A stretch of DNA of 64,000 bases, from the IMG/VR virus record IMGVR_UViG_3300009082_000002, positions 43,407 through 107,406 of that record, one strand, 5' to 3'. Of the stretch, positions 14,694 through 30,230 are shown piece after piece. The stretch comes from a virus. The notes under the pieces are model-generated. The model saw only the letters and a program-made list of their open reading frames with translations, made no database searches and had not been told where the DNA came from. The stretch's first letter is position 1. Each line of letters opens with the position of its first letter. The position numbers were made by a program, and so were the translations under genes.

Positions 14694-14714
14694 CGCGCGC
14701 CTCGGGGGGTGTCG

Positions 14715-16163
14715 ATGGCCAGTGCGTCAGCTAAAGCGATCCGTGTCGACGAGAAGGAAGAGCTCGTCCGCGCCTTTGGCGAGTATGAGGCCATCTCCAA
14801 TGAGACCCTACGACGCGAGATTCTGCTCAACAGCCGATTCGACCTGCTCGCGGAATACGTGCTTGGCATCGAGCTGGAGCAAGTCCACCGTGAGCTGATC
14901 GCATACGCGCTCGAACACCCGGAGTCTCTGCACCTTGCCTTCCGTGGTTGCGGGAAGACGACTTCCTTCGTCTGCGTGTACATTGTCGGCCGCTTGCTTC
15001 AGAACCCGGAGCTTTGTATCCTGATCGCATCGCGCGCCGGACAGTACGCCAAGGCGATCTTGAAAGAGGTCAAGGGCCACCTAGTCAGCGAGCGGCTGGT
15101 CAGGATCTTCGGCGAGCAGATTGGCGAGAAGTGGGAAGAGACCGAGATCGTCGTCGGGCGAAAGAAGCGAAATACGAAGGAAGCCTCGGTCACGGCGCTC
15201 GGCGCCGAGGGCTCGATGACCGGTCGGCACTTCGACATCATCTTCTTCGACGATGGCGTGGACTTGGCGAACAGCCGCACGCGTGGCCAGCGCGAGAAGA
15301 TCAAGGAATTCTACTACACGACTCTCGACCCGTGCCTGAAGCCGGGTGGAGAGCGCAAGGTCGTCGGCACACGCTACCATCCGCACGACCTCTATGGCTG
15401 GCTCTCCGCTCACGAGTACAAAGGTTGTGCGCAGATCCTTCCGGCCCTGCACGAGGTCCGCGATGGCGGCGGATCGGTCACATACTACTCCAGCGCGCCA
15501 AAGCGCTTCACAGTCGAGTACCTCCTGGGCAAGCGATCCACGATCCCGACCTTCTCGTGGGTCACGCAGTTCCAGTGCACGGCGGAGCGGTTCCAGGGCA
15601 AGGTCTTCAAGCCGGAGTACTTCGAGGCCGAGGGCTTCTTCTTCACCGGCCCATTGCCGACCGGCCCTCTCTTCCAGTCCGTCGACCCTGCCGTGACCGA
15701 GGACACAAAGAATGACTACTTCGCCCACATGACTGGCGTCGCTGATCACGAGGGCCACGTATGGGTCGACGTCTTCCACAACATCCGTATCGAGTTTCCG
15801 AAGCAATCGCAGTTTTGCCACGATGAATTTGAGGCGCGCGATCCGGTGCGACTTGGTATCGAGAGCAACGCATACCAGAAGGCGCTCGGCCAGCAAATTG
15901 TCGCCGACTACCCGGACCTCAAGGGCAAGGTGATCGGCGTTCCGACCGACAAGGACAAGATGACTCGGGCCCTGAAGTTGACAGCCTATTTTGAGGCGGG
16001 CAGAATCCACTTCAGACCGGAGCACAAGGAACTCGTCGAGCAACTGCTGGAGTTCCCGGACGGAGAACACGATGATCTTTTCGACGCCCTGTATCTGCTA
16101 GTCTTGCTCGGGACGCGGATGCGGGTGAAGAAGAAGCGGCGCAAAGAGCCGGGCGTCCTTTGA
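14715..16163 (+). CDS. terL: terminase large subunit
   Basis: Walker A FRGCGKT, Walker B IIFFDD, GTRYH, nuclease SVDPA, IESN, FPDGEHDDLFDA. Confidence 0.95.
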   Translation: MASASAKAIRVDEKEELVRAFGEYEAISNETLRREILLNSRFDLLAEYVLGIELEQVHRELIAYALEHPESLHLAFRGCGKTTSFVCVYIVGRLLQNPELCILIASRAGQYAKAILKEVKGHLVSERLVRIFGEQIGEKWEETEIVVGRKKRNTKEASVTALGAEGSMTGRHFDIIFFDDGVDLANSRTRGQREKIKEFYYTTLDPCLKPGGERKVVGTRYHPHDLYGWLSAHEYKGCAQILPALHEVRDGGGSVTYYSSAPKRFTVEYLLGKRSTIPTFSWVTQFQCTAERFQGKVFKPEYFEAEGFFFTGPLPTGPLFQSVDPAVTEDTKNDYFAHMTGVADHEGHVWVDVFHNIRIEFPKQSQFCHDEFEARDPVRLGIESNAYQKALGQQIVADYPDLKGKVIGVPTDKDKMTRALKLTAYFEAGRIHFRPEHKELVEQLLEFPDGEHDDLFDALYLLVLLGTRMRVKKKRRKEPGVL

Positions 16164-16174
16164 AGGGAGCAGGC

Positions 16175-18001
16175 ATGGCAGATCAGAAGGTGGTGAGGAT
16201 GCGACGGCGCCCGGTCGTGGGCTCCGCGAAGTCTTCTCCCAGCGACGCAGTCGAGAGCGGTGCAGTTCACATCGTGGACCACGCGTCTCGAGCTGTCGTC
16301 AAGGCGCTGGTGATCGAGGCCGACGCGGAGAAGGTGCCGGTGCCGACGTCCCAGGTCATGCCCGACGATCCCTTTCAGTCGCTCCTCGACAACCGTCAGA
16401 TCCTCGCGCCGCCACTCGACCCGCGGCTGCTCGCGTCGCTGTGGGAGTACAACTCCCACCTCGGCCCGTGCATCGCGACGATGATGGTCAACTGCGAGAG
16501 CTTCGGCTATCAGTTCGAGCCTCGCATCCGCGTCAACGAGGACACGTCGAAGGCGGTGCGCCAGCGCATCGAAGAGGAGCGCCTCATCCTCGACAACTTC
16601 TTCGGCAACTGCGTGATCGAGGGCGACGACAGCTTCACCGGTCTACGGATGCGGAAGCGGCAAGACGAGGAGGCCATCGGCTTCGCGGCGTGGGAGGTCA
16701 TCGAGGTCAACGGCGACCTTCTCGGCTTCAACTACATGCCAGCTCATACCGTCCGGCTGACGGGGCTCGACGAAAAGCGGGTCCGTATCGGGCGCAAGCT
16801 CCTCGTCCGCGGGGCCAGCGGTGTCTTCTCCTACGTCGAGCGACCGGTCTGGCGGCGGTTCCGCAAGTTCGTCCAGGTGCGCGGGACCAAGATGAGGTGG
16901 TTCAAGGAGTACGGCGACCCGCGCATGATGAACGCGGACTCTGGCGAGTACGTCGACGACCCCGCCAAGCTCCCGGTTCACAAGCGGGCCAACTCCGTCC
17001 TCTTCTTCGCGCTGCCCGCGCCGCGCACGCCATACGGCATCCCGCGCTACATCGGCAATCTTCTCGGGGTCTACGGCTCGCGCGCGACCGACGAGATCAA
17101 CTTCTTCACCTTCGAGAGCAACAACGTGCCGTCGATGGTCGTGATGGTCAGCAACGGGATGCTGACCGAGGGCTCGGTGGATCGGATTCAGAAGTTCGTT
17201 GAAGCGCAGGCCAACGGCCAGCGGAACTACAGCCGCTTTCTCATCCTCGAAGCGGAGACCGACAGCGAAGGTCTCGGCGACCCGGGCCGCGTCGCGCTCC
17301 ATATCGAGCCGCTCACGAATCAGCAGCGGACCGACGCTCTCTTCACCGAGTACAAGAAGCAGTGCAAGTCCGATGTGCGTCAGAGCTTTCGCATCCCGGA
17401 CCTTTTCTTCGGCGAAGCCTCATCGTCTGCCGGAGGCGCGGTCGGCGCGATGGAGATCATGAGAAAGCTCACGGATGAACAGGTCTTCATGCCGGAGCGC
17501 AACGCCTTCGACGACCGCATCAACAAGCTCATCATTCCGGCGCTGGGCGTGGTCTATCTGAAGTTCAAGAGCAACACGCCGGAGACGACGGACAACAAGG
17601 ATCTCATCCGCATTCTCGCAATGGCCGAGAAGTCCGGTGGCGTCACCCCACGGATCGCTCGCGAGGTACTCAACCGCGTGGTCGGGCAGAACCTCGGCGA
17701 CGTCACGGATATCGAGCCCGACGTCCCCTTCTCGCTCCAGGTCGCGGAAGCTGCACGCAGTCAAGGCGATCCGCGCACAGCGCTCTCCGTGCCCGGTACC
17801 AACTCGCTCCGCAGGATGGGCGCGACGACCCGCGCCGAGCTAGGGCTGGAGTCCACGGCCAAGGCGGAGGACGGCGACGAACCGTGGGAAGGCGAGGCCG
17901 TCATCGCAAGCCTCGGCTTGCTCCACAACAAGATCGCCGAGGAGCAAGCTCGCCGCGCTGGCAAGATGGTCAAGCGCGAGCGGCCGAAGCCCGTCGAGTA
18001 G
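16175..18001 (+). CDS. portal protein (PBSX-like)
   Basis: Directly after TerL; YGIPRYIG, FESNNVP, VRQSFRIP pattern. Confidence 0.9.
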   Translation: MADQKVVRMRRRPVVGSAKSSPSDAVESGAVHIVDHASRAVVKALVIEADAEKVPVPTSQVMPDDPFQSLLDNRQILAPPLDPRLLASLWEYNSHLGPCIATMMVNCESFGYQFEPRIRVNEDTSKAVRQRIEEERLILDNFFGNCVIEGDDSFTGLRMRKRQDEEAIGFAAWEVIEVNGDLLGFNYMPAHTVRLTGLDEKRVRIGRKLLVRGASGVFSYVERPVWRRFRKFVQVRGTKMRWFKEYGDPRMMNADSGEYVDDPAKLPVHKRANSVLFFALPAPRTPYGIPRYIGNLLGVYGSRATDEINFFTFESNNVPSMVVMVSNGMLTEGSVDRIQKFVEAQANGQRNYSRFLILEAETDSEGLGDPGRVALHIEPLTNQQRTDALFTEYKKQCKSDVRQSFRIPDLFFGEASSSAGGAVGAMEIMRKLTDEQVFMPERNAFDDRINKLIIPALGVVYLKFKSNTPETTDNKDLIRILAMAEKSGGVTPRIAREVLNRVVGQNLGDVTDIEPDVPFSLQVAEAARSQGDPRTALSVPGTNSLRRMGATTRAELGLESTAKAEDGDEPWEGEAVIASLGLLHNKIAEEQARRAGKMVKRERPKPVE

Positions 18002-18010
18002 GATCGAAGG

Positions 18011-21000
18011 ATGATCCTCGCAGCGCGCAAGCTAGGTCCGATGGATGCCATCTTCCGGTCGATGACCGACGAGCAACTTGCGACCGCGAAGGCGGTCGCT
18101 CGCGAAGCTCTCCAGTGGTCGGGCGTACTCAAGGCGGCAGATGTCTATCTCGGCGTCGACGAGGATCTCTCCGCGACGCTCCTGCACAAGTGGGATGCCA
18201 AAGCGAAGGAGCAGATTGACAAAGGCGCCAAGGTGCTTGCGAAGGCGCAGAAGGGCGAGGTTGTCCAGTCCACGCTGAAGGGTACGTTGTGGAAGCTCGG
18301 CAAGGTGATGGGCGAGGAGTATGGCGAGGCCGTGTTGCCCGACTTCATCCGCGCGACGCTACTGACCTGGAGTCTGGCAAGCAAGGAAACGATGGGCCGA
18401 CTTCAGCTCAAGTGGTCAACCGAACTTGTCGACCAGAACGCCGCAGCTCGGCTTTCCAAGTTCCACACCTATTGGGTCGGAAAGCACTACGAAACTAGCA
18501 TTGCGAATTCGCTCCAGATCGCCACGCGGCAGACCATCATCGAAGGCGGACTTGCTGGCACGCAGGCAGCCAACGCCTTCCGCGACATCGCCTCGAAGTA
18601 CTTGGCCGGCAAGGGCGAGTCCTTCCCCGAGGTTCCGAAGGGCTGGACTGGCACGACGGACGAGTACTTTGCTGGGCTCGCGAATCACGTCGGCACACAG
18701 GCCCGCGTCTTCAGCCGACTCGAATCCTACGAGCGCGTCGGGATCACGACCTACACCATCGTCGCCGTCCTCGACAACCGGACGAGCGATATTTGCCAGA
18801 TGATGCACGGGCAGACATTCACGGTCGAGCAAGGTCTCGGCGTCGCGGAGACCTGGACGGAGGAGTACACTCCAGAGGCAGTCAAGGAGAAGGCCGGCTG
18901 GATGCGCGCGCAGGACGCAGCCAAGCTCGCCGGGCTGTCGGACTACAAGCCCGGCACGGTCTCACCAAAGATCAGCCCGAAGGGAATGGACGCACTGGCC
19001 GAGGCTGGCATGGCGCTTCCGCCGTACCACTTCCGCTGCCGGACAGACATCGTCGCGGAGCAGGAGGTCATGACCTTCCCGAGCGGCGGCGAGCCGACTT
19101 ACAAGCCGGTGAAGCCGCCGAAGGCCGAATCGCCGAAGCCGCCGCCGGCCGCGCCTACGCCGCCATCCAAGGCGACGGGCGGATTCCCGTGGCAGATGTC
19201 CCAGCTCACGTCGGTTGAGAAGTCCGCGAAGGGAATGCACGCCAAAGCCTTCTTCCACGACCCGGACGGCAACGAGTGGATGTTCAAGCCCGCGCCGGAG
19301 GGGCTGCGTTTTCGTGCAGAGGTCGAGAAGCTGGCTGCCGATGCGGCGCGCGCGCTCGAAGTCGACACGGCCGACGTCTTCATGGTTGAGCACGAAGGAA
19401 AGATCGGGACGATTCAACGCCTCTTCAAAGACATCAAGCACGACGGGCTCACCAAGGTCGGCGTCCAGGGCTTGACGCAGGAGCAGGTCGCACAGCTCCA
19501 GCGCCAGCACATTTTTGACTGGCTCATCGGGAACAACGACGGCCACATCGACAACTTCCTCGTCTTGAAGGACGGCAAGCTCGTCGGCATCGACCGAGGG
19601 CAGGCCTTCCGCTATTTCAAGACAGACAAACTCGCGCTCGACTACAACCCCAATGCGCGCTATGGGATCAAGGTCTTCTACAACGACGTCTTCGCAGCGG
19701 CACGCGACGGCAAGTTGCCGACTGGCGTAGAGATGCTCGGGCTCGACGCGCCGGAGATTGCCAGTCTGGTTAAGAAGGCCGAGTCGCTGTCCGACGAGCA
19801 GTGGCTTACGATCTGGCGGCCGTACATCGACGGCGCGATGAAGAACAAGAGCCTCGCCTACGGCTCGCGCGCCGCCTTTGAACGCGAGCTACTTCGACGG
19901 AAGAACCAGCTAGGGAGTGATCTCGACGAGTTCTATCGCGGCCTCCTCGGAAAAGGACGCGCGGCGCGTCGGACAGCGGAGACGCAGAAGGGTGTCCTGA
20001 CTCCGGTTGACAAGTCCTTCGTGAGTGAGATGCAAGCCGCGAAGAACCGCGGCAAGTCCGTGCTCGTCGCGTCGGAAGAGATCGAAAACGGCAACGTCCT
20101 CGTCTACACCTACGCGGACGGGACGGTCGTGGTCGAAGGCAAGATGCGGAAGCTCGCCGACGAGATGGTGCGGGCGCAGCTTGCTGGCCCGCAGGCTGCG
20201 GGCGCAACGCCGGGGACCGACTCGCTGTGGGACGACGTGCTCTCCTGCATCAAGTCTTTCAATCACCATCTCGGGCCAGGCGGCAGCGGTACGATCCCGG
20301 ACAGCAAGCAACGTCTTTTCGTGCGGACGCTCAACGCGGCAAAAAAACAATGGGCCGAAGGCTGGACCGTACCGGGCGGGACGCAGGCTGGACAGATGGG
20401 TGAATACTACGTCAAGCTCCTCCAGCAGTATGGGACCGAGTCGCTCGGGATGCGGCTGACCACAACGACAAAGAAAATGCTCGGCGTCAAGAACCAGCCG
20501 TTCAAGGTGCCAGGCGTGAAGGCCAAGGCACTCGCTGGTCGCGTGAAGCGGTCGAGCATCGAGAGAATCTACGAGGAGGAGCGCAAGCTGGTCCGCGGAG
20601 TGATCAAGAACAAGCACGGCGAGATTGCGAGTCAGTCCACCTTCGGATGCGGAATGGATGAGACCAAAGAGATGATTGTGGCTGTGCTCGATGACGGCAC
20701 GGAGATCCACTACATCCCACACAACGGATATAGGCAGGGCCAGGCGTACTCGAAGCAAGGCCGCTTCAGGATTAAGGTGCAACCGGCTACCGGCGCGAAG
20801 GACGTCACGCCGAAGCAAGTCCAGAAGGCACTTGACGCCATCGGTGATCTCGGCGTCTCGCCGAAGCTGATGACCGAGGCCGACTTCGAGTTGCTCTACT
20901 TGCAGAAAAACCAGTTCGCGATGGGCTACGCGAACGATGCGGCTTTCGCCAACATCCCGGCCAACGGCTCAACCGAGGAAAAAATCCAGGCGTACCTCGA

Positions 21001-21661
21001 CGCCTTCAGAAAGAAGCTGCGGAAAAATCCGCGTTCGCTGCCCGGCTACGATCCGCGGCCGGTCTACTACAGCGGGGACAACGCGGGCATTCCGCGTTTC
21101 CGGCGTTTCGACATTGACCGGAAGAAGCTAGCAGAGGCGGACCTTGAATTCACACACAGAGTTCAAGGGGGCGCGGATGAAGTGCTTCTTTCGATCATCG
21201 ACGGAGAGTCTGGCGGCTTGATCTCGACGGAGGAGAAGCTCCGTCGCGGAGTTGAAATCAGCGGGATGAGCCCTGGCGAGGACCAGATGACCGGCGGTGC
21301 GCAATACGTTTTCGCGCGGGCGAAGGGGATTGGCCGGGAGCGCAACTGGAACATGATCATCTTTAAGAAGGAACTGGCACTCGACACGAACATGGTCTCC
21401 TATTCGACAGACAAATTCGGGTGTATGGAGCCAGGCAGGAAGGAAGCGACTCGCGCGAAGACGTTTCAGAAGTTGATGGGTTTCCGCAAATTCGACGCTA
21501 ATGAGTCGCTCATCAAAAACGAGATTCCGCTGGACATGTGGGAGCACGTCATCGTCAGGCGGTCCACGCGGGTCAAGCTACTCGATGAACTCGAAAAGCG
21601 TGGCGTGAAGACACTTGGCGGGAAGCCCGTCGAGGAGTTCGTGATCGGGCTCGGGAGGTGA
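18011..21661 (+). CDS. MuF (SPP1 gp7-like) minor head protein fused to a HipA/PI3-4K-like kinase and a C-terminal ART-like domain
   Basis: MuF: AVLDNRTSDICQMMHG, PPYHFRCRT; Pro-rich linker; kinase: WMFKP, DWLIGNNDGHIDNF, GIDRGQAF; C-terminal H..GLIST..YVF pattern (weaker call). Confidence 0.8.
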   Translation: MILAARKLGPMDAIFRSMTDEQLATAKAVAREALQWSGVLKAADVYLGVDEDLSATLLHKWDAKAKEQIDKGAKVLAKAQKGEVVQSTLKGTLWKLGKVMGEEYGEAVLPDFIRATLLTWSLASKETMGRLQLKWSTELVDQNAAARLSKFHTYWVGKHYETSIANSLQIATRQTIIEGGLAGTQAANAFRDIASKYLAGKGESFPEVPKGWTGTTDEYFAGLANHVGTQARVFSRLESYERVGITTYTIVAVLDNRTSDICQMMHGQTFTVEQGLGVAETWTEEYTPEAVKEKAGWMRAQDAAKLAGLSDYKPGTVSPKISPKGMDALAEAGMALPPYHFRCRTDIVAEQEVMTFPSGGEPTYKPVKPPKAESPKPPPAAPTPPSKATGGFPWQMSQLTSVEKSAKGMHAKAFFHDPDGNEWMFKPAPEGLRFRAEVEKLAADAARALEVDTADVFMVEHEGKIGTIQRLFKDIKHDGLTKVGVQGLTQEQVAQLQRQHIFDWLIGNNDGHIDNFLVLKDGKLVGIDRGQAFRYFKTDKLALDYNPNARYGIKVFYNDVFAAARDGKLPTGVEMLGLDAPEIASLVKKAESLSDEQWLTIWRPYIDGAMKNKSLAYGSRAAFERELLRRKNQLGSDLDEFYRGLLGKGRAARRTAETQKGVLTPVDKSFVSEMQAAKNRGKSVLVASEEIENGNVLVYTYADGTVVVEGKMRKLADEMVRAQLAGPQAAGATPGTDSLWDDVLSCIKSFNHHLGPGGSGTIPDSKQRLFVRTLNAAKKQWAEGWTVPGGTQAGQMGEYYVKLLQQYGTESLGMRLTTTTKKMLGVKNQPFKVPGVKAKALAGRVKRSSIERIYEEERKLVRGVIKNKHGEIASQSTFGCGMDETKEMIVAVLDDGTEIHYIPHNGYRQGQAYSKQGRFRIKVQPATGAKDVTPKQVQKALDAIGDLGVSPKLMTEADFELLYLQKNQFAMGYANDAAFANIPANGSTEEKIQAYLDAFRKKLRKNPRSLPGYDPRPVYYSGDNAGIPRFRRFDIDRKKLAEADLEFTHRVQGGADEVLLSIIDGESGGLISTEEKLRRGVEISGMSPGEDQMTGGAQYVFARAKGIGRERNWNMIIFKKELALDTNMVSYSTDKFGCMEPGRKEATRAKTFQKLMGFRKFDANESLIKNEIPLDMWEHVIVRRSTRVKLLDELEKRGVKTLGGKPVEEFVIGLGR

Positions 21662-22458: not shown

Positions 22459-22632
22459 ATGAGCAGAGATCCGCTTGTTGAGATCGAGCAGCGCTACCGC
22501 GCGAAGAGGCTCTCCGCTCTCGGCCTCGCCAGCATCATCAGACGAGCCTGCGACACCTTTGAGGCATCCGAGCGACTGCGCAAGCGTTGGTCCGCACGCA
22601 AGGCCGTGATCGATCAGGAGGCCGGTCGATGA
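22459..22632 (+). CDS. small basic hypothetical protein (57 aa, not in the ORF track)
   Basis: GGAGG SD; MSRDPLVEIEQRYRAKR...; ATGA overlap with 22629. Confidence 0.45.
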   Translation: MSRDPLVEIEQRYRAKRLSALGLASIIRRACDTFEASERLRKRWSARKAVIDQEAGR

Positions 22633-25600
22633 AGATCAAGGACATCTCGCCGACTTCCTTGCGCGGAGTAAAGGACCAGGAGCTTCTCTCGCTCCACCTT
22701 CGGACTCATCAGCTTTACGGCGCGAACTTCGGGCCGGACGCCCCGCCAGAGCGCGGCTACCGCGACGACACGGGAGACACGGCCAAGGACGGCTTGAGGC
22801 TCGACGAGGAGACCGCGCGGAAGATCTGGCGCGGCGAGGTCAAGGCGGTCACCTTCTCCGACGACCCCGGTGACGTTGAGCGCGCTCTGTTCCTGCTGTC
22901 GCCCGGCTTCGCCTACGGCATCATCCGGCTTGACGAGACCGACACCGACGACCACAAGTACAAGGTCGACTACTTCCGCGCTTTCGAGGTGCCGCTCACA
23001 TTCAAGGGCACGGGCGACGGCCTGCTCGTGACGGGAGTCGAGATCACGTCGGAGGAGTCGCCGCTGTCGCTGGAAGACCTGGTCCACGCTCACCAGTTCA
23101 TCCTCGACGAGATGAACCGCCGGAAGATGCGCCACCAGTGGGCCTCGCAGCTCGACGACGAGACCAGCCCGGGCGAGGAGATTGAGAAGGCGACCGGACC
23201 TTTCAAGCGCTGGGGTGGGTCTGCCCAGTACGCAGCAAAAATCGCGAAGTACGTACCAGCGAACGCTGGCGCGTACATCGAGCCCTTCGCTGGTGCGGCC
23301 AGCGTGTTTTTCTCACTGACCGACACGCCGAGGAAGCGCGTGCTGGCCGACCTGGACCCGGAGCTAGTTCACGCCTTCAAGATGATCCAGGGCGCGGCGA
23401 AGAACGGGCTCATCAAGGCGCTCGAAAAAAAGGACCGTGTTGTCAGCGAAAAGCAGTGGCAGAAGTTGCGGCATCGGATTCCGAGCGGCGACGTCGAGCG
23501 CGTTCATCGGTTCCTGTACCTGCTCGGCGGATCGTGGTCCGGCGTGCGGAGTGGCGCGCGCCCGAACAAGAAACGAGTCGGTCAGATTTCCTACGATCCG
23601 AAGCGGCTGGAGAAGTTCATCAAGCCGTTGCAGGGCGTGACGCTCAAGAACCAGAACTGGCAGAAGACGCTGAAGGACAACGACGCGCCGGACGCCTTCT
23701 TCTTCATCGATCCGCCGTACCCGGGCGAGTGGGACAAGAACGCCGACGACACAGGCACGGACGGCAAGCAGTTCGACGTCGAGGCTCTTGTCGAGGCGAT
23801 GAAGGATCTGAAGGGTGGCTGGCTTCTCGTTCTTGGCGACACCAAGACCCAGACGGATGCGCTGGCGAAACTGGAGAAGGAAGCCGGCGCATCTCGCTTC
23901 AAGATCCAGTTGAGCGAGGCTGCGAGTTCTGGTGGGCACAAGGAAGCCTATCGGTACTTCGCGATGCGCCCGCTTCAGTCCCGCGTGCGGAAGGCCGACG
24001 ACGTTGGCGTGAGCCGCGACCAGGTACTCGACCTCATGGAAGAGGCCGGCAGCTTTGTGGTGGTACCGAGTTATGTGTCGCTCGTCGGCTCCGTCGTGAC
24101 CGGCGAGGATGACCAGTCGGCACACGACATTGATCTGCTTGTTCGCGATGACGAGATCGATTCCAAGGTCGGGCTCAAGCTGGACCGCCTCTTTCCCGCG
24201 TCGATGCGCGACAAGGTCCACTACATCCCCGACCCGCAGGGACCGAATTGGGATCACCTGCCGCTGTACGATCTGGTCCTGCGGAAGCGCAGCGCGCTGG
24301 AAGTGGTCGAGGTCGATGAACCGGAGTACCACCCCTTCCTGTCCGGCGATGTGCGCCGCTACGGCGAGCAAGTCGCGAAGGGGAAGTTCACCATCGTCCG
24401 TGGAATCTGGGGCTCGCCCGGCGGCAAGGCTTTTCTCGCAAAGCGCATCGCCACCGTCATCCCGCCTCACAAAATCTACGTCGAGCCGTTCGCTGGCGGT
24501 GGCGCGGTTCTCTTCGCGAAGCCGCCGGTCGAAAAGGAAGTCGTCAACGACCTCGACAGCGAGATCGCCTTCGCGTGGCGGTTCGTCAGCAAGGTCACGG
24601 ACGACCAGCTCGACGCGCTCCGCAAGATGAACTGGGTGGCGAGCGGCAAGCTGTTCGCCAAGCTGCGTGACATGAAGCCGCCGTCCGATCCGGTCGAGCG
24701 ATTTCATCGGTTCATGTACCTCTACCGCTGGAGCATCAACGGCAACCGCGAGAAGACGCACACGATGCCGCCGACCTACGAAGGGCTCCGGCAGCAGGCA
24801 GTCGAAGCGGTCGAGCGGTGTCGCGAGCGCGTGCATGGCCTCATCGTGCGGAGCGCCGACTACGAGAAGGTTATCGACGAGTTCGACAGCAAGGACACCT
24901 TCTTCTTCATCGATCCGCCGTACAAGCATTATGATGCCCAGCTCACCGAGGAGAAGAAGCAAGAGGACTTCGACGAGGAGCGATTCGTCGAGGTGCTGAA
25001 GAAAATCAAGGGCAAGTTCCTTGTGACCTACGGAATCCGCAGCGGCACGGATCTCTTCAAGGGCTTCACGGTCCAGCGGTGGCAGCACCGAGGTCGGCCC
25101 GGGCCGGCCGTGGGCGGCAAGTTCCAGAAGGTCACGACGCTCATGGTCTCAAACTATCCGCTGCCGCAGCGGACGCGCAAGGCGAAGGTGGGGCTCATGC
25201 AGCCCTTCACTCCGCTGAAGGCGAAGGGCGGGTACCATCAGGGCGAGTTCTTCGAGGCCGACCCGCTGTGGGATCTCTGGGCTGGCCCTGCGATCAAGGA
25301 CGGGAAGACCGTCGCCGTCGAAACCAAGTTCGACGGAATTCGGATGGTCATCCACAAGGAAGGCGACAACGTCGCGATCTACACCGAGGATAAGAAGCGC
25401 GACCGCGCGAGCATCCTTCCGGACTTGGCCGACGAGGTTCGCAAGCTGACAGTCGAGAACGTGATCCTTGACGCCGAGGTCGTCTGGTGGAAGGGCAGCA
25501 AGCCGCTGGCCCGTCACGACATGATGGCGCTCGTTGTCGGCAAGGACCCGATCAAGGGCGAGGATATCCGGGCCAACGTGTTCGACGTCCTGTGGTTCGG

Positions 25601-27917
25601 CGGCGAGGGCAGCCTGGCCGATGAGTCGTGGGAGGATCGCCAGTCGTACCTGCGCAAGGTTCTGCCGAAGGATGGGAAGCATCTCATTCGCGTGGTGCCG
25701 CGGCTGGTCAACAACCGGCGCGAGTTCGATGCCGCACTCAAGGCTGCGCGTCGAGCAGTCGGCAGCGAAGGCGCGATGCTGAAGCTCGCCAATGCGCCGT
25801 ACGATCTGGAAGGCCAGACTGGCGCGTGGGCCAAGCTCAAGGACGTGTACGAGATCAAGTGTGTCGTCATCGGTGTCCGCAAGAAGATCCCGAGCGAGCA
25901 GGAGGACCCCGGCTTCAAGAAGGACCCCTCGCGCTGGAACTACGCCGGTATCAAGGAGCCCAGCGCTTTCACCTACCGCTGCGCCGTCCGTGGTGAGGGT
26001 GGCAAGCTCATCCCCATCGAGGGCGAGCGGACGTACACCGGCTCGGATCTCAAGGTGCGGTGGGTCGAGAAGGGCCAGAAGGACCCGGTGACGGGTGAGA
26101 CCGCGAGCGAGAGCGAGTGGCGCGGTACCGACGATCCGAAGCTCTGGAAGATGGGGCTCGGCTTCAACAACCGCGACGTCGGCGACACCGAGTACGGCAC
26201 GACCTACGGCACCGGAGTCGAGGCGAAGATCGGTGACGTCATCACGGTCTCTCCGGTCTTGGTCCGAGAGTGGGTCGGGGACAGCGGCCGGCGTCACTAC
26301 TCGTGGACCTTCCCCATCGTGCGCGAATCCGACCCGACACGCGACGAGCCTGACCGCGTCGAAGACCTGCGGCGCATCGCAGCGGCGAGCCGGCAGCGCG
26401 CACCGGAGAAGATGCCGAGCGAGGAAGCCGTCGAAACCGCGGCGGTGTCGAAGTCCGTCGCGAGGATCGCCCACCTGCAGAAACAGCGGCGCGGCGACCT
26501 GGACCCCGACGAGACCAAGCTCAATCGCGAGGAGGAACGCGAACGGCAGGAGAAGATCACGGGCGACCCGTACATGGTCGAGCAGAAGGCCAAGGCCAAG
26601 GCACGGTTCGTCTTGCAACAACACTATCGCGGGTTCTGGTCGCCGGACGAGCGGAAGCAACTGCGAGACGGAATCACGCGGGCTCGCGAGCTGGCCGAGT
26701 CCGACAAGAAAGATGAGGCCAAGGATCTGCTCAAGGGTCTCTGGCAGGAGTACCAACCGCTCATGCTCAAGGCCAGCATCGCAGAGATCCGCGAGGCAGC
26801 CGAGGCCGCAGACAACGCAGGCGAAGGCGAGGTCAGTCCGGCGGTTGCGCGCCGTCTATCGGAAGCGGTGCCGATGTTCGATGAGCTCGAAGGGGTCGAA
26901 GATCGGATCGTCAACCGGGGCAACGTCCACACCGACCTTCGGATGGAGTCGCCGTCCGGCGACTGGCTGATCGGCTGGACGCTGGATACGCCGAAGCTGG
27001 CCCTGCAGACGCTCGACGGGAAGGCGCATGACCTCCTCCGGTCCTACGTGATTGACAACAAGCCGGACGACAACGCGCTCGCCCAGCGCAAGCTGGTCCA
27101 GCCCGAGAACTGGCTGGCCATCGTCAACGAGAAGAAGCCGATCTACCAGACCGCTCCGGGCGACGTCGGCTCAACGCGCGGCACCGCTGGCGAGTACCAC
27201 TACATTGACTCGGGCGTTGTGATCTTCGGCGTGCAGAAGTCCGACTATCACGAGTACTTCTTCTTCCCCGAGAAGCACAAGGGCTGGGCCGGTCGGTGGG
27301 GGCTGCAGCTCATCGAGGGGAGCCCGAGCTACGCCCGCGCGCCGAGCGAGTTCTGGATGGCCAACCGGCCGAAGGAAACGCAGACCCCCTACATCCAGAC
27401 GCACGACCTCGACGAGGAGGAGAAGAAGGCCAAGACCGACAAGATCGACCTCGTGTGGAACCCCGACACGGTCGAGGCACTGAAGGCGGTCGGGTACGAA
27501 TCGCTCGCCGACGTGTCGAAGTCCGCTGGCGGCGAGCTTGAACCGATCAGCGTCAACGTCCGAATCGTGAAGGCGGCGAAGGAGGAGCGGTACGTTCTCG
27601 GCGTTGTGATGAAACCGGATGACGTCGACGCCCACGGAGAGATTACCACGGCAGCCGAGATCAGGAAGGCTGCCCACAATTTTCTTGTCAATGGTCCGAA
27701 GATCGGCTATCAACATGAAGAGACACCTGGAGGTCTGATCTTGATCGAGAGCTTCCTGGCCCCCGCAGAGTTCAAGCTCGGTGGCGAGACGATCACTGTT
27801 GGCACCTGGCTCATCGCGGTTCGCGTGAACAACGACAAGGTGTGGAAGGCCGTCAAGGAAGGGAAGATCACCGGCTTCAGCATCGAAGGTTACGCAAAGA
27901 AAGTGCCGCTCGAATAG
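22629..27917 (+). CDS. prohead protease polyprotein: His-rich/ASCH-like + Dam MTase + nucleotidyltransferase-like + Dam MTase + ATP-dependent DNA ligase + LigD-PE-like + XkdF-type protease
   Basis: Two EPFAG..DPPY sets; LVGSVV..HDIDLLV; ligase ETKFDG, LDAEV, FDVL, EGAMLK, WAKLK; RFVLQQH..HTDLRME; protease DAHGE..GYQH..ESFLAP..TGFSIEG; AGGAGG SD. Confidence 0.85.
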   Translation: MKIKDISPTSLRGVKDQELLSLHLRTHQLYGANFGPDAPPERGYRDDTGDTAKDGLRLDEETARKIWRGEVKAVTFSDDPGDVERALFLLSPGFAYGIIRLDETDTDDHKYKVDYFRAFEVPLTFKGTGDGLLVTGVEITSEESPLSLEDLVHAHQFILDEMNRRKMRHQWASQLDDETSPGEEIEKATGPFKRWGGSAQYAAKIAKYVPANAGAYIEPFAGAASVFFSLTDTPRKRVLADLDPELVHAFKMIQGAAKNGLIKALEKKDRVVSEKQWQKLRHRIPSGDVERVHRFLYLLGGSWSGVRSGARPNKKRVGQISYDPKRLEKFIKPLQGVTLKNQNWQKTLKDNDAPDAFFFIDPPYPGEWDKNADDTGTDGKQFDVEALVEAMKDLKGGWLLVLGDTKTQTDALAKLEKEAGASRFKIQLSEAASSGGHKEAYRYFAMRPLQSRVRKADDVGVSRDQVLDLMEEAGSFVVVPSYVSLVGSVVTGEDDQSAHDIDLLVRDDEIDSKVGLKLDRLFPASMRDKVHYIPDPQGPNWDHLPLYDLVLRKRSALEVVEVDEPEYHPFLSGDVRRYGEQVAKGKFTIVRGIWGSPGGKAFLAKRIATVIPPHKIYVEPFAGGGAVLFAKPPVEKEVVNDLDSEIAFAWRFVSKVTDDQLDALRKMNWVASGKLFAKLRDMKPPSDPVERFHRFMYLYRWSINGNREKTHTMPPTYEGLRQQAVEAVERCRERVHGLIVRSADYEKVIDEFDSKDTFFFIDPPYKHYDAQLTEEKKQEDFDEERFVEVLKKIKGKFLVTYGIRSGTDLFKGFTVQRWQHRGRPGPAVGGKFQKVTTLMVSNYPLPQRTRKAKVGLMQPFTPLKAKGGYHQGEFFEADPLWDLWAGPAIKDGKTVAVETKFDGIRMVIHKEGDNVAIYTEDKKRDRASILPDLADEVRKLTVENVILDAEVVWWKGSKPLARHDMMALVVGKDPIKGEDIRANVFDVLWFGGEGSLADESWEDRQSYLRKVLPKDGKHLIRVVPRLVNNRREFDAALKAARRAVGSEGAMLKLANAPYDLEGQTGAWAKLKDVYEIKCVVIGVRKKIPSEQEDPGFKKDPSRWNYAGIKEPSAFTYRCAVRGEGGKLIPIEGERTYTGSDLKVRWVEKGQKDPVTGETASESEWRGTDDPKLWKMGLGFNNRDVGDTEYGTTYGTGVEAKIGDVITVSPVLVREWVGDSGRRHYSWTFPIVRESDPTRDEPDRVEDLRRIAAASRQRAPEKMPSEEAVETAAVSKSVARIAHLQKQRRGDLDPDETKLNREEERERQEKITGDPYMVEQKAKAKARFVLQQHYRGFWSPDERKQLRDGITRARELAESDKKDEAKDLLKGLWQEYQPLMLKASIAEIREAAEAADNAGEGEVSPAVARRLSEAVPMFDELEGVEDRIVNRGNVHTDLRMESPSGDWLIGWTLDTPKLALQTLDGKAHDLLRSYVIDNKPDDNALAQRKLVQPENWLAIVNEKKPIYQTAPGDVGSTRGTAGEYHYIDSGVVIFGVQKSDYHEYFFFPEKHKGWAGRWGLQLIEGSPSYARAPSEFWMANRPKETQTPYIQTHDLDEEEKKAKTDKIDLVWNPDTVEALKAVGYESLADVSKSAGGELEPISVNVRIVKAAKEERYVLGVVMKPDDVDAHGEITTAAEIRKAAHNFLVNGPKIGYQHEETPGGLILIESFLAPAEFKLGGETITVGTWLIAVRVNNDKVWKAVKEGKITGFSIEGYAKKVPLE

Positions 27918-27932
27918 CGGTCGGGATGGGCG

Positions 27933-28946
27933 ATGTCGAAGAAGGCCGAGCGCGAACTCAAGGACATCGTGGTCACGAATGTGGACCTTGTGGACCGCGC
28001 CGCGAACGAGGAACAATTCGCAGTCGTGAAACGGAAGGAGGGCCGAGGGATGGCCGACAAGACCAAGGTGAAGAAGGACGAAGAGACCGAGGAGGAGAAG
28101 GTGGCCGGCGAGGTGGCAGGCGCCGCCGAGACCGAGACCGACACGGAGGCCAGCACCGATGAAGGCGGCGACGACAAGAGCGCGGTCGCCAAGACGGCCG
28201 AGGCCGTCACGGGCCTGACCGCGCGGCTCGACTCGCTCCTCGACCACCTGGAGAAGAAGGGCAAGACCTCGAAGCAGGACGAGGACGAGGAGGACGTCAC
28301 GAAGGCGGACGGGATCAAGATGGCCAAGGACGCGCTCGCTGCGGCCCTCGTCGTCAAGAACCTGCCGGCCGACGCGAAGGCCAAGATCGAGTCGGCAATC
28401 GCCCTGCTCGACAAGATGAAGGCCAACGGCTACGGCTACCCGAAGCCGACCGAGGCCAAGAAGTCCGAGAGCGTCGTCGGCGACGCCGAGGCCGTGGCCA
28501 AGGCCGGTCGCATCCTGTCGAAGGCCAACCTCGGCAAGCTCCAGACCGCGGCCAAGGCCATGAACGACGCGACCGAGACGATCACATCCATGCTCAAGCA
28601 GGCGATGGGCACGACCGACGAGGAGGAGGACGAGGAGGCCAAGTCGAAGACGAAGAAGGCCAAGGCCAAGAAGCAGGACGACGAGGAGGACGAGACCGAC
28701 GTCGAGGCCAAGAAGGCCAAGGGCAAGAAGGCCGAGAAGGCCGAGGACGAGGACGAGGAGGTCAAGAAGTCGCTACTCGCGATCTCCGACAGCCTCACCA
28801 AGATCAGCAAGCGGCTCGACGACGCCGAGGCCGCCGTGGGGATCACCAAGTCCCTCGGCGACGGCGAGGATGCTCCCGAAGGCGAGACGGTCAAGAAGTC
28901 GCAAGGCGGCCTGTGGGCCGGACTCGGCCTGGTGCCGGGGCGCTAG
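27933..28946 (+). CDS. capsid scaffolding protein with N-terminal protease-like segment (internal start 28050)
   Basis: K/E/D/A-rich; between protease and MCP; repeated VxK[AS]; N-terminal RELKDIVVTNVDLVDRAAN. Confidence 0.75.
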   Translation: MSKKAERELKDIVVTNVDLVDRAANEEQFAVVKRKEGRGMADKTKVKKDEETEEEKVAGEVAGAAETETDTEASTDEGGDDKSAVAKTAEAVTGLTARLDSLLDHLEKKGKTSKQDEDEEDVTKADGIKMAKDALAAALVVKNLPADAKAKIESAIALLDKMKANGYGYPKPTEAKKSESVVGDAEAVAKAGRILSKANLGKLQTAAKAMNDATETITSMLKQAMGTTDEEEDEEAKSKTKKAKAKKQDDEEDETDVEAKKAKGKKAEKAEDEDEEVKKSLLAISDSLTKISKRLDDAEAAVGITKSLGDGEDAPEGETVKKSQGGLWAGLGLVPGR

Positions 28947-29021
28947 CAGCAAGGACAACCGACGCGTTGACCGCGTAGGAAGAACCGGGTGAAGGAACCC
29001 ACGAGAGAAGGAGGCAGGAAT

Positions 29022-30230
29022 ATGCCGGCAGTGACCAACAGAGAGGCGCTCAAGAAGGCGGTCATCACGACGGACTCGATCACGACCGCCGGGAAGCTCA
29101 ACCCCCTCCAGGCGGATCGGTTCATCGACTTCGTCTGGGACGTGACCAAGCTCAAGGGGCACGTGCGGACCGTCAAGTTCCGCAACGACGAGATGTACAT
29201 CGACAAGGTCGGGGTCGGCACTCGCGTCGCGGTGCCGAAGGTCGAGGCCGTGGACCCGGGTGTCCGGCGCGGCATCACGACCTCGCGCGTGACGCTGAAG
29301 CCGTCCGAGGTCATGTGCCCCTTCGAGATCAGCTACGAGATGCTCGACGAGAACCTGGAAGGCGAGGCCTTCGCCGAGCACCTGGTCAAGATGTTCGCCA
29401 CGCAGTTCGGCAACGACATGGAGGAGCTGTGCATCAACGGCGATGCGCTGGGCCCGGCAGTCCTCCAGTCCGAGTACGTGGCCGGCGGCAGCGCGACCAA
29501 GTACGTCAAGGACGCGTACCTCGCGCTTCACGACGGCTGGCTGACCCTCGCGCGGCAGGGGCACGGTGTCGACTTCGCCGGGGCCAACGTGAGCAACCGC
29601 CTCTTCAGCCGACTGATCAACGCCCTGCCCGAGAAGTTCAAGAAGGACCGGACCAAGCTCCGCTTCTTCTGCTCCACGGACTTCGAGCAGAACTACCGCG
29701 AGAAGGTGGCCGCCCGGGCGACCGGCAAGGGTGACGTGGCGCTGATGAGCGAGATGCCGCTGACGCCCTTCGGCGTGCCGCTCATCGCGGTGCCGCTGCT
29801 GCCCTTCCAGCCGAAGGTGGTCCAGCACATCGTCCTGACCGGCACCACGGCGACCGCGCTCCTCTTCAAGGATGTGACCAGCGTGGTCGTGACGACCTCG
29901 ACCCTGGACGCCACCCCCGAGGATGCGTACACCGAGGGCGCGGGTGGTGACTACGTGCTGGATGCGGTCAACGGCACCATCGCTCGGACCGCCGGCTCGA
30001 CCATCGGTTCCGGCGCGACCGTGAAGGTGACCTACAACGCCGAGGCCCAGGTCATCTGCACGCACGAGAGCAACTTCATCATGGCGCTCGGCCGTGACTC
30101 GATCCGGCTGGAGACGGACCGGGACATCTTCAAGTCCACGCTCCAGTACTCGCTGACCGCCAAGATCGACTGCGAGTTCGAAGAGGCCGATGCGATCAGC
30201 TTCGGCTACAACATCGGGCTCGACGTCTAG
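29022..30230 (+). CDS. major capsid protein (HK97 fold, XkdG-like) with inserted beta domain
   Basis: AGKLNPLQADRFID, LDENLEG, NDMEELCINGD, LPEKF; AAGGAGG SD; strong codon bias. Confidence 0.9.
   Translation: MPAVTNREALKKAVITTDSITTAGKLNPLQADRFIDFVWDVTKLKGHVRTVKFRNDEMYIDKVGVGTRVAVPKVEAVDPGVRRGITTSRVTLKPSEVMCPFEISYEMLDENLEGEAFAEHLVKMFATQFGNDMEELCINGDALGPAVLQSEYVAGGSATKYVKDAYLALHDGWLTLARQGHGVDFAGANVSNRLFSRLINALPEKFKKDRTKLRFFCSTDFEQNYREKVAARATGKGDVALMSEMPLTPFGVPLIAVPLLPFQPKVVQHIVLTGTTATALLFKDVTSVVVTTSTLDATPEDAYTEGAGGDYVLDAVNGTIARTAGSTIGSGATVKVTYNAEAQVICTHESNFIMALGRDSIRLETDRDIFKSTLQYSLTAKIDCEFEEADAISFGYNIGLDV

Follow-up and report, generated by a model that had tools for sequence, protein, structure and literature searches.

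The 64,000-nucleotide stretch analyzed here (hereafter the window) is a phage head-tail region. It forms the right-hand end of the uncultured viral contig IMGVR_UViG_3300009082_000002, which is 107,406 bp in length with 64.4% G+C. Between the portal and MuF genes and the scaffold and capsid genes, a single open reading frame (ORF) of 1,776 amino acids joins a series of enzymes to a protease domain, and a short motif, [IVLT]-x-K-[ASG], recurs along it. The question raised by this locus is whether the motif is the recognition code by which that protease cuts the head proteins, as was proposed in a first-pass annotation. Since the motif lies far above chance at the joints of the polyprotein and in the scaffold, it is probably the cut site of the head-maturation protease. 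The reading we hold to be the likeliest, with reasonable though not high confidence, is an S78-type cleavage preference of the C-terminal XkdF protease for Lys at P1, the residue preceding the cut.

As far as can be judged from its sequence, the gene encodes a polyvalent head protein in which six cargo modules precede a prohead serine protease of the XkdF type (Peptidase_S78_2) at the C-terminus. Pfam profiles matched the D12 Dam methyltransferase family twice, an ATP-dependent DNA ligase once, and Peptidase_S78_2 (XkdF) over residues 1659-1772. The ORF and its modules are listed below, with residues counted from the TTG codon and a slash marking the predicted cut.

22587-27917, forward strand: polyvalent polyprotein ORF, 1,776 amino acids from TTG
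22629-23189, forward strand: module A, residues 15-201, 21 kDa, no family hit; ends at IEK/A (K201, codon 23187)
23190-23993, forward strand: module B, first Dam methyltransferase, residues 202-469 (PF02086, E-value 4e-17 on the piece alone); ends at VRK/A (K469, codon 23991)
23994-24380, forward strand: module C, small, with a weak nucleotidyltransferase-like match, residues 470-598; ends at VAK/G (K598, codon 24378)
24381-25181, forward strand: module D, second Dam methyltransferase, residues 599-865 (PF02086, E-value 2.5e-21); ends at TRK/A (K865, codon 25179)
25182-26453, forward strand: module E, ATP-dependent DNA ligase, residues 866-1289 (PF01068, E-value 1e-22); ends at VSK/S (K1289, codon 26451)
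26454-27521, forward strand: module F, LigD 3'-phosphoesterase-like, residues 1290-1645; ends at VSK/S (K1645, codon 27519)
27522-27914, forward strand: module G, XkdF-type prohead protease core, residues 1646-1776

The true start of the polyprotein is likely the ATG at 22629 (M15), where the homolog P0004 begins (P-numbers denote homologous proteins, and L001 and L007-L011 denote related loci). Module A is encoded by a separate gene of 224-228 amino acids in two relatives (L007 6298-6972 and L009 3887-4570), hence it appears to be an independent, unexplained head-associated domain. Module F yielded a confident fold model, with Foldseek matches to 3n9d (E-value 7e-5) and 3p43 (TM-score 0.65). 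It carries an FV.Q.H.RG-type motif and is widespread, in stand-alone proteins as well as in XkdF fusions. In module G, the XkdF domain (PF14550) was matched over profile positions 3-124 of 126 with an E-value of 8.2e-30 and a score of 103.8 bits against a cut-off of 24, and it stops four residues short of the C-terminus. Residues H1683, H1710, and S1765 (in GFSIEG) are invariant in an alignment of eight sequences and conserved in 13 homologs; S1765 and a His are candidate catalytic residues, where the choice of His follows HK97 gp4. The protease part also gave a weak Foldseek match to the T4 gp21 protease (5jbl), and searches of PDB sequences gave nothing useful for either the capsid or the protease.

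This architecture is of a known kind, as it corresponds to the polyvalent proteins of Iyer et al. (2017; PMC5512222). These are large, multi-domain, head-associated proteins of late operons that combine DNA methylases with other nucleic-acid enzymes, and where they carry an assemblin-like peptidase, it invariably sits at the C-terminus and is likely to process the protein in the course of assembly; the same study proposed that this embedded peptidase sets the domains free. The window likewise contains seven modules in one polypeptide encoded between the portal/MuF and scaffold/capsid genes, with the peptidase at the extreme C-terminus. The described proteins differ in that a zincin-like metallopeptidase is dominant, a DarB-type methylase-helicase is typical, and no cleavage motif is given (PMC5512222), whereas the window encodes two Dam-type methylases, a ligase, and a LigD phosphoesterase.

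XkdF proteases fused to cargo are a very large, unstudied class: a representative library contained 6,181 XkdF hits, many of them in proteins of 600-2600 amino acids. Most XkdF stretches among 150 representatives end within a few residues of the C-terminus; the proteins that depart from this mainly have a best match confined to the phosphoesterase module. The cargo modules are differently combined among 12 large homologs and the 150 representatives, and they are separate genes in some relatives.

The frequency of the motif was compared with the expectation from composition, both for the loose form given above and for a narrow form, [VI]xK[AS]. Among the head proteins, from portal to capsid, the loose motif occurred 40 times against 20.7 expected (Poisson p 1e-4) and the narrow motif 20 times against 6.0 (p 5e-6). 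In the other 27,274 amino acids of the genome, the counts were 66 versus 67.5 (0.98x) and 21 versus 20.4 (1.03x), respectively, so that the excess was limited to the head proteins. The polyprotein alone contains 15 loose matches where 7.6 were expected. The excess is therefore real, and all motif coordinates quoted by that annotation for the polyprotein, scaffold, capsid, portal, and MuF proteins proved correct; its seven polyprotein sites, however, had been selected from these 15, the remainder being K140, K277, K825, K1162, K1383, K1551, K1694, and K1754.

A scan of residues at P1 in the head proteins of the window placed Lys at the top (1.93x, with the next best at 1.6x), while Val was the best residue at P3 (2.96x) and Ala and Ser at P1' (approximately 2.2x). 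Control motifs in the same proteins showed ratios of approximately 1.0x for Arg or Asp at P1, 1.30x for Glu ([IVLT]xE[ASG], which reached only 1.04x at boundaries), 1.35x for the reversed motif, and approximately 1.0x for shifted spacing; all controls together ranged from about 0.7 to 1.4 in the window and from 0.9 to 1.2 in relatives. The head proteins of L007-L011 contained 105 loose matches versus 68.4 expected (p 2e-5) and 38 matches to VxK[AS] versus 13.8 (p 6e-8), with ratios of 0.6-0.9x in their non-head proteins. Similarly, a broad set of 115 XkdF-fusion representatives (50% clustering, each of at least 600 amino acids) contained 820 loose matches against 505 expected (1.62x). Lys was the sole strong P1 residue in this set, Val and Ile were each enriched 2x at P3, and the ratios at P1' were 2.0 for Ala, 1.8 for Gln, 1.6 for Ser, and 1.4 for Thr. 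With the protease domain excluded, V-x-K-A ranked 19 and L-x-K-A ranked 14 among 5,650 tripeptide patterns.

The code as originally proposed thus needs some revision at its edges. P1' seems wider than Ala, Ser, and Gly, as Gln and Thr occur, and Leu and Thr at P3 seem weak. The predicted site is best read as Val or Ile (less strongly Leu or Thr) at P3, Lys at P1, and Ala or Ser (also Gln, Thr, or Gly) at P1'.

The same annotation had placed each of its seven sites just before a recognizable domain. Module boundaries were set blind to the motif, from homolog termini projected onto the polyprotein and from homology breakpoints. Five methylase-first homologs begin at projected residues 189-197, homolog N-termini project to 588-605 at the end of module C, and a ligase-first homolog begins at 867. 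The end of the L001 ligase gene projects to 1269, six homologs begin at 1308-1311, and five homologs end at 1639-1643, the end of module F. The resulting five boundary zones (189-197; 588-605; 867; 1269 and 1308-1311; 1639-1651) cover 5.6% of the length, and each has one match (K201, K598, K865, K1289, and K1645). The probability that all five would be hit was 1.5e-5 with 15 hits placed uniformly and about 1e-6 with local-composition shuffles. The placement claim accordingly stood for these five sites, whereas K1662 is doubtful, as it belongs to a segment of the protease domain. No independent support was found for a boundary at K469, where P0004, at 92% identity, is the sole homolog to retain the motif. 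Cuts at the five supported sites and K469 would give products of exactly one domain each.

Joints in rearranged homologs also carry the motif. Both P0005 and P0006 are without module D, and module C lies directly 5' of the ligase, ending in VTK/A in P0005 and VEK/A in P0006; further new joints in P0006 carry VTK/A and VAK/S. The stand-alone module A gene of L007 retains TAK/A after the domain, at the same spot as K201. A second candidate site follows the ligase at K1299 (LQK/Q, codon 26481), and [LVI]-x-K/[QA] recurs 5' of the phosphoesterase module in P0005, P0006, P0018, P0019, and P0022-P0024. In the linker before the protease, the motif was found in 23 of 70 representatives against 8.9 +/- 2.6 after shuffling; none of 300 shuffles reached 23, and control motifs were not enriched.

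The AlphaFold2 model of residues 1270-1776 had a mean predicted local distance difference test score (pLDDT) of 85.9. Both K1645 and K1662 lie within a disordered stretch (1643-1664, pLDDT <50), and K1289 in a low-confidence helix (pLDDT about 60), while K1383, K1551, K1694, and K1754 are inside confident cores. A model of residues 150-1320 resolved only the ligase (approximately 870-1270, with pLDDT >90 up to about 1270 and low values beyond), with K865 just before it and K1162 inside its confident core.

The remaining head genes lie on both sides of the polyprotein gene, with two small genes between the MuF gene and the 1,776-amino acid ORF:

14709-16163, forward strand: large terminase
16160-18001, forward strand: portal protein, with VVK/A at K48 (codon 16301) and TAK/A at K568 (codon 17861)
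18011-21661, forward strand: MuF-kinase protein, 1,216 amino acids, with VEK/S at K404 (codon 19220)
27933-28946, forward strand: scaffold, 337 amino acids
27969-28031, forward strand: 'VDLVDRAAN...FAVVK' strand at the scaffold N-terminus
29019-30230, forward strand: major capsid protein, likely starting at ATG 29019, which is preceded by a ribosome-binding site

The scaffold contains seven matches versus 3.3 expected, and the VTK/A, VAK/A, VKK/S (twice), and ITK/S sites claimed for it are all present. Five V-x-K/[ASTQ] sites are conserved in four of four homologs (the window, L007, L008, and L009; 36-48% identity), with Lys codons at 28191 (K87), 28302 (K124), 28500 (K190), 28767 (K279), and 28848 (K306, ITK/SLGDG). 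They sit amid variable acidic runs and include VG[IV][TS]K/SLGD. The VKK/S at K322 (28896) is not conserved.

In the other head proteins, the claimed matches are present, but they are only suggestive as cut sites. The capsid LKK/A has its Lys codon at 29055, residue 12 from ATG 29019, and [LV]-x-K/AVI is kept in L007-L010, with LEK/V in the Streptomyces phage Comrade; this site is not discriminating, since the whole capsid N-terminus is conserved. The three portal matches (1.6 expected) are not significant; K48 is kept in L009 and L011, and K568 is kept in L007 and L011 and lost in L009. Portal matches and most MuF matches are within chance, and most of the other 11 MuF matches are unconserved. 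The exception is K404 (VEK/S), situated past the MuF core and the Pro-rich linker behind it; this site corresponds to VQK/S in L007 and VKR/G in L008.

Known cleavage sites make a Lys-P1 specificity of the XkdF protease the likeliest reading. The first-pass annotation was right that the HK97 protease cuts at a Lys-Ser bond: the S78 protease cleaves the capsid protein gp5 at K103/S104 (PMC10275583). The HK97 gp5 record reads FNK/SLGSD at the cut, to be compared with ITK/SLGDG in the window scaffold, and the related protease-scaffold of Comrade, one of the Streptomyces BE-cluster phages, has the sites ITK/A and IKK/SGDLGG. The capsid of phi12 is cut at R128/L129 and the Ccm protein of SaPIbov5 at K87/Q88 (PMC8569155). 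These HK97-like proteins also have a basic P1, and the K/Q bond equals that of LQK/Q before the phosphoesterase module of the window; they differ in having no cargo polyprotein, and the authors noted that the two sites had little in common apart from P1 (PMC8569155).

Further likenesses to HK97 gp4 include the serine prohead-protease family implied by the Pfam name Peptidase_S78_2, the G-x-S-[IV]-G serine motif, and a 'SLVxxPAN'-type strand. Besides Lys at P1 and Ser at P1', the systems would share the loss of the scaffold part by proteolysis, which is predicted for the window. They differ in that HK97 has a delta domain in place of a separate scaffold protein, and Phe rather than Val or Ile at P3. 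Moreover, the protease of the window is the C-terminal tip of a 1,776-amino acid cargo protein with the PAN strand on the scaffold ORF, and its sites are predicted from sequence.

Prohead-protease codes are known in other phages, such as (L or I)-x-E for T4 gp21 and (A, S, or G)-x-E for phiKZ gp175 and SPN3US gp245. In those systems, one short three-position motif recurs at the borders of propeptides or domains, not only in the capsid and the scaffold but also in many proteins that are packaged or ejected, and the protease has an assemblin-like fold. The window resembles them in that the same short motif is above chance on head proteins including the scaffold. It differs in having Lys rather than Glu at P1 and a code deduced from sequence where theirs were mapped by mass spectrometry, and their proteases (S77) are free-standing.

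Several observations weigh against a cleavage code. Chance alone would account for about half of the loose-motif matches, and the eight matches omitted from the first-pass annotation are unconserved in relatives or part of conserved domain motifs. In the wider family, a match within eight residues was found at only 19% of 232 boundaries (96 members; enrichment 1.54). Some joints in relatives of about 60% identity are without the motif, namely the ligase-phosphoesterase joint of P0005, the joint between module C and the phosphoesterase (module F) in L007, and L001. The flanks of the broad-set matches did not fall clearly below background in hydrophobicity and have no clear linker signature, and K201, K469, and K598 could not be placed in linkers because the model of the methylase region is poor (pLDDT 30-60). 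K1662 (IVK/A, codon 27570) lies in the conserved N-terminal segment of the protease domain, and its equivalent (IIK/A) occurs in P0140, a stand-alone protease homolog of 129 amino acids. Additionally, the replications are not fully independent, since the relatives share ancestry, and literature searches found no proteomic or biochemical data on this phage or any XkdF-type protease. They also found nothing on XkdF specificity, T5 pb11 sites, or methylase-protease fusions.

Consequently, the claim that the motif predicts the processing map of the whole head was an overreach, given the chance matches, the eight matches in cores or domain motifs, the joints without a motif, and its low frequency at boundaries. 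The suggested contrast of linkers with cores held for the five zones of this polyprotein, but only to the limited extent just given in the family. What endures is the idea of Lys at P1, which fits the enrichment in head proteins, the joints, the conservation in the scaffold, more than 100 fusions, and HK97. K1662 was rejected as a plain linker site because of its conservation across the protease family, including the stand-alone member; self-trimming at this position is possible.

The strongest alternative, which we nevertheless consider unlikely, is that the motif reflects a sequence style. A hydrophobic-x-Lys-small pattern could arise from helix periodicity, docking, or packing in scaffolds and linkers with helices rich in Lys, Ala, and Glu, and the polyprotein may work uncut. 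Any Lys (1.22x) and K[ASG] (1.35x) are indeed mildly enriched at boundaries, as is the reversed motif in the broad set (1.28x). The match flanks resemble average protein, the motif is missing from most boundaries, and some conserved scaffold sites, for example V-x-K-AGR..S..N, might serve in binding. Nonetheless, neither global nor local composition-preserving shuffles produced the excess, the spacing is exact (0.9-1.2x for shifted versions), and Arg, Asp, and Glu at P1 are not enriched at boundaries (0.2-1.0x). The motif also appears at new joints of rearranged architectures with unrelated flanks.

A slightly less credible alternative is that cleavage at these sites is confined to the scaffold, with perhaps the capsid, as in HK97, so that the matches at joints are partly coincidence and the cargo remains one chain or is cut elsewhere. 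No sites are better conserved than those of the scaffold, only a subset of relatives retain the joint sites, and modules encoded as separate genes need no cleavage. This alternative is at odds with the match in every one of the five independent boundary zones, with the enrichment in the pre-protease linker across 70 representatives, and with the TAK/A retained by the stand-alone N-terminal domain of L007. The notion that the joint motifs are fossil gene starts, in which GTG or TTG came to be read as Val or Leu after fusion and was followed by Lys-rich early codons, was rejected as highly improbable: although the P3 codon is GTG at K469, K1289, and K1645 and the modules are separate genes in relatives, the idea is largely refuted by the P3 codons at other sites (ATT, ACG, GTC, or ATC) and by N-termini of stand-alone homologs without M-x-K-[AS], Met is not enriched at P3 (0.56x in the window and 1.4x in the broad set, versus 2x for Ile), and internal scaffold sites are left unexplained.

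If the motif is a Lys-P1 cut site, head maturation might proceed as follows. The polyprotein would be built into the procapsid along with the scaffold, and the protease would then cut only the copies of the motif exposed in linkers, at approximately K201, possibly K469, K598, K865, K1289 or K1299, and K1645. Products of about 14-47 kDa would remain inside the head, from where they could pass into the host together with the DNA. The scaffold would be cut at its five conserved sites into pieces small enough to exit, and the capsid, portal, and MuF proteins might be trimmed. Both packaging of the polyprotein in the virion and its delivery to the host are inferred from gene context. We likewise infer cutting of the motif, the enzyme responsible, and delivery of the products.

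With such a cut site, the head proteomes of thousands of uncultured phages would become predictable from sequence, including the enzymes released in the capsid, their sizes, and hence the non-DNA content injected. In this phage, two Dam methylases, a ligase, and a 3'-phosphoesterase would form a plausible anti-restriction and end-repair kit. The motif would also be the first specificity assigned to XkdF-type prohead proteases, and it would serve as a simple linker when foreign proteins are to be loaded into capsids.

The protease fold itself appears to be split between the polyprotein and scaffold genes. In HK97 gp4 and Comrade gp27, the 'SLVxxPAN' strand lies in the protease polypeptide, about 30 residues past the strand of the catalytic serine. 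In the window, the polyprotein ends 11 residues past S1765, and a strand of this type is found at scaffold residues 13-33 (window 27884-28031 for the region as a whole), so that the PAN strand and the serine strand are in different polypeptides. L007-L010 show the same gene split, and their scaffold ORF is in frame +1 or +2, which makes recoding unlikely. Readthrough of the TAG at 27915-27917 into the scaffold was rejected on these frames and because TAG is the commonest stop. Among the 119 called genes of the whole genome, TAG terminates 56, TGA 54, and TAA nine, and TAG as the most used stop is unusual at 64% G+C.

The scaffold may dock onto the protease and complete its fold in trans. A broader and more speculative proposal is that the XkdF-cargo class as a whole uses a (Val or Ile)-x-Lys/(Ala, Ser, or Gln) code to free swappable kits of DNA-protection and repair enzymes in the capsid, and that here the PAN strand of the scaffold completes and switches on the protease in trans.

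The nearest relatives of the phage were uncultured viral contigs of 107-131 kb, and a scan of genome contigs turned up no relative. Its capsid is about 35% identical to capsids of Streptomyces BE-cluster phages. The MuF protein contains a HipA/PI3-4-kinase-like domain past the Pro-rich linker, followed by approximately 600 more residues. In L009 and L010, the MuF protein is bare, with 335-355 amino acids, ending at about residue 350. Hence, from its sequence, the MuF protein looks like a second cargo-carrying head protein. In L008, the homolog P0006 (2834-11350; 2,643 amino acids) includes C5-methyltransferase-like modules in a tandem array of four. A similar 'PNV[VI]TK/[AQ]' junction precedes two of them, as if the cassettes had been duplicated along with their linker, while the other two junctions differ.

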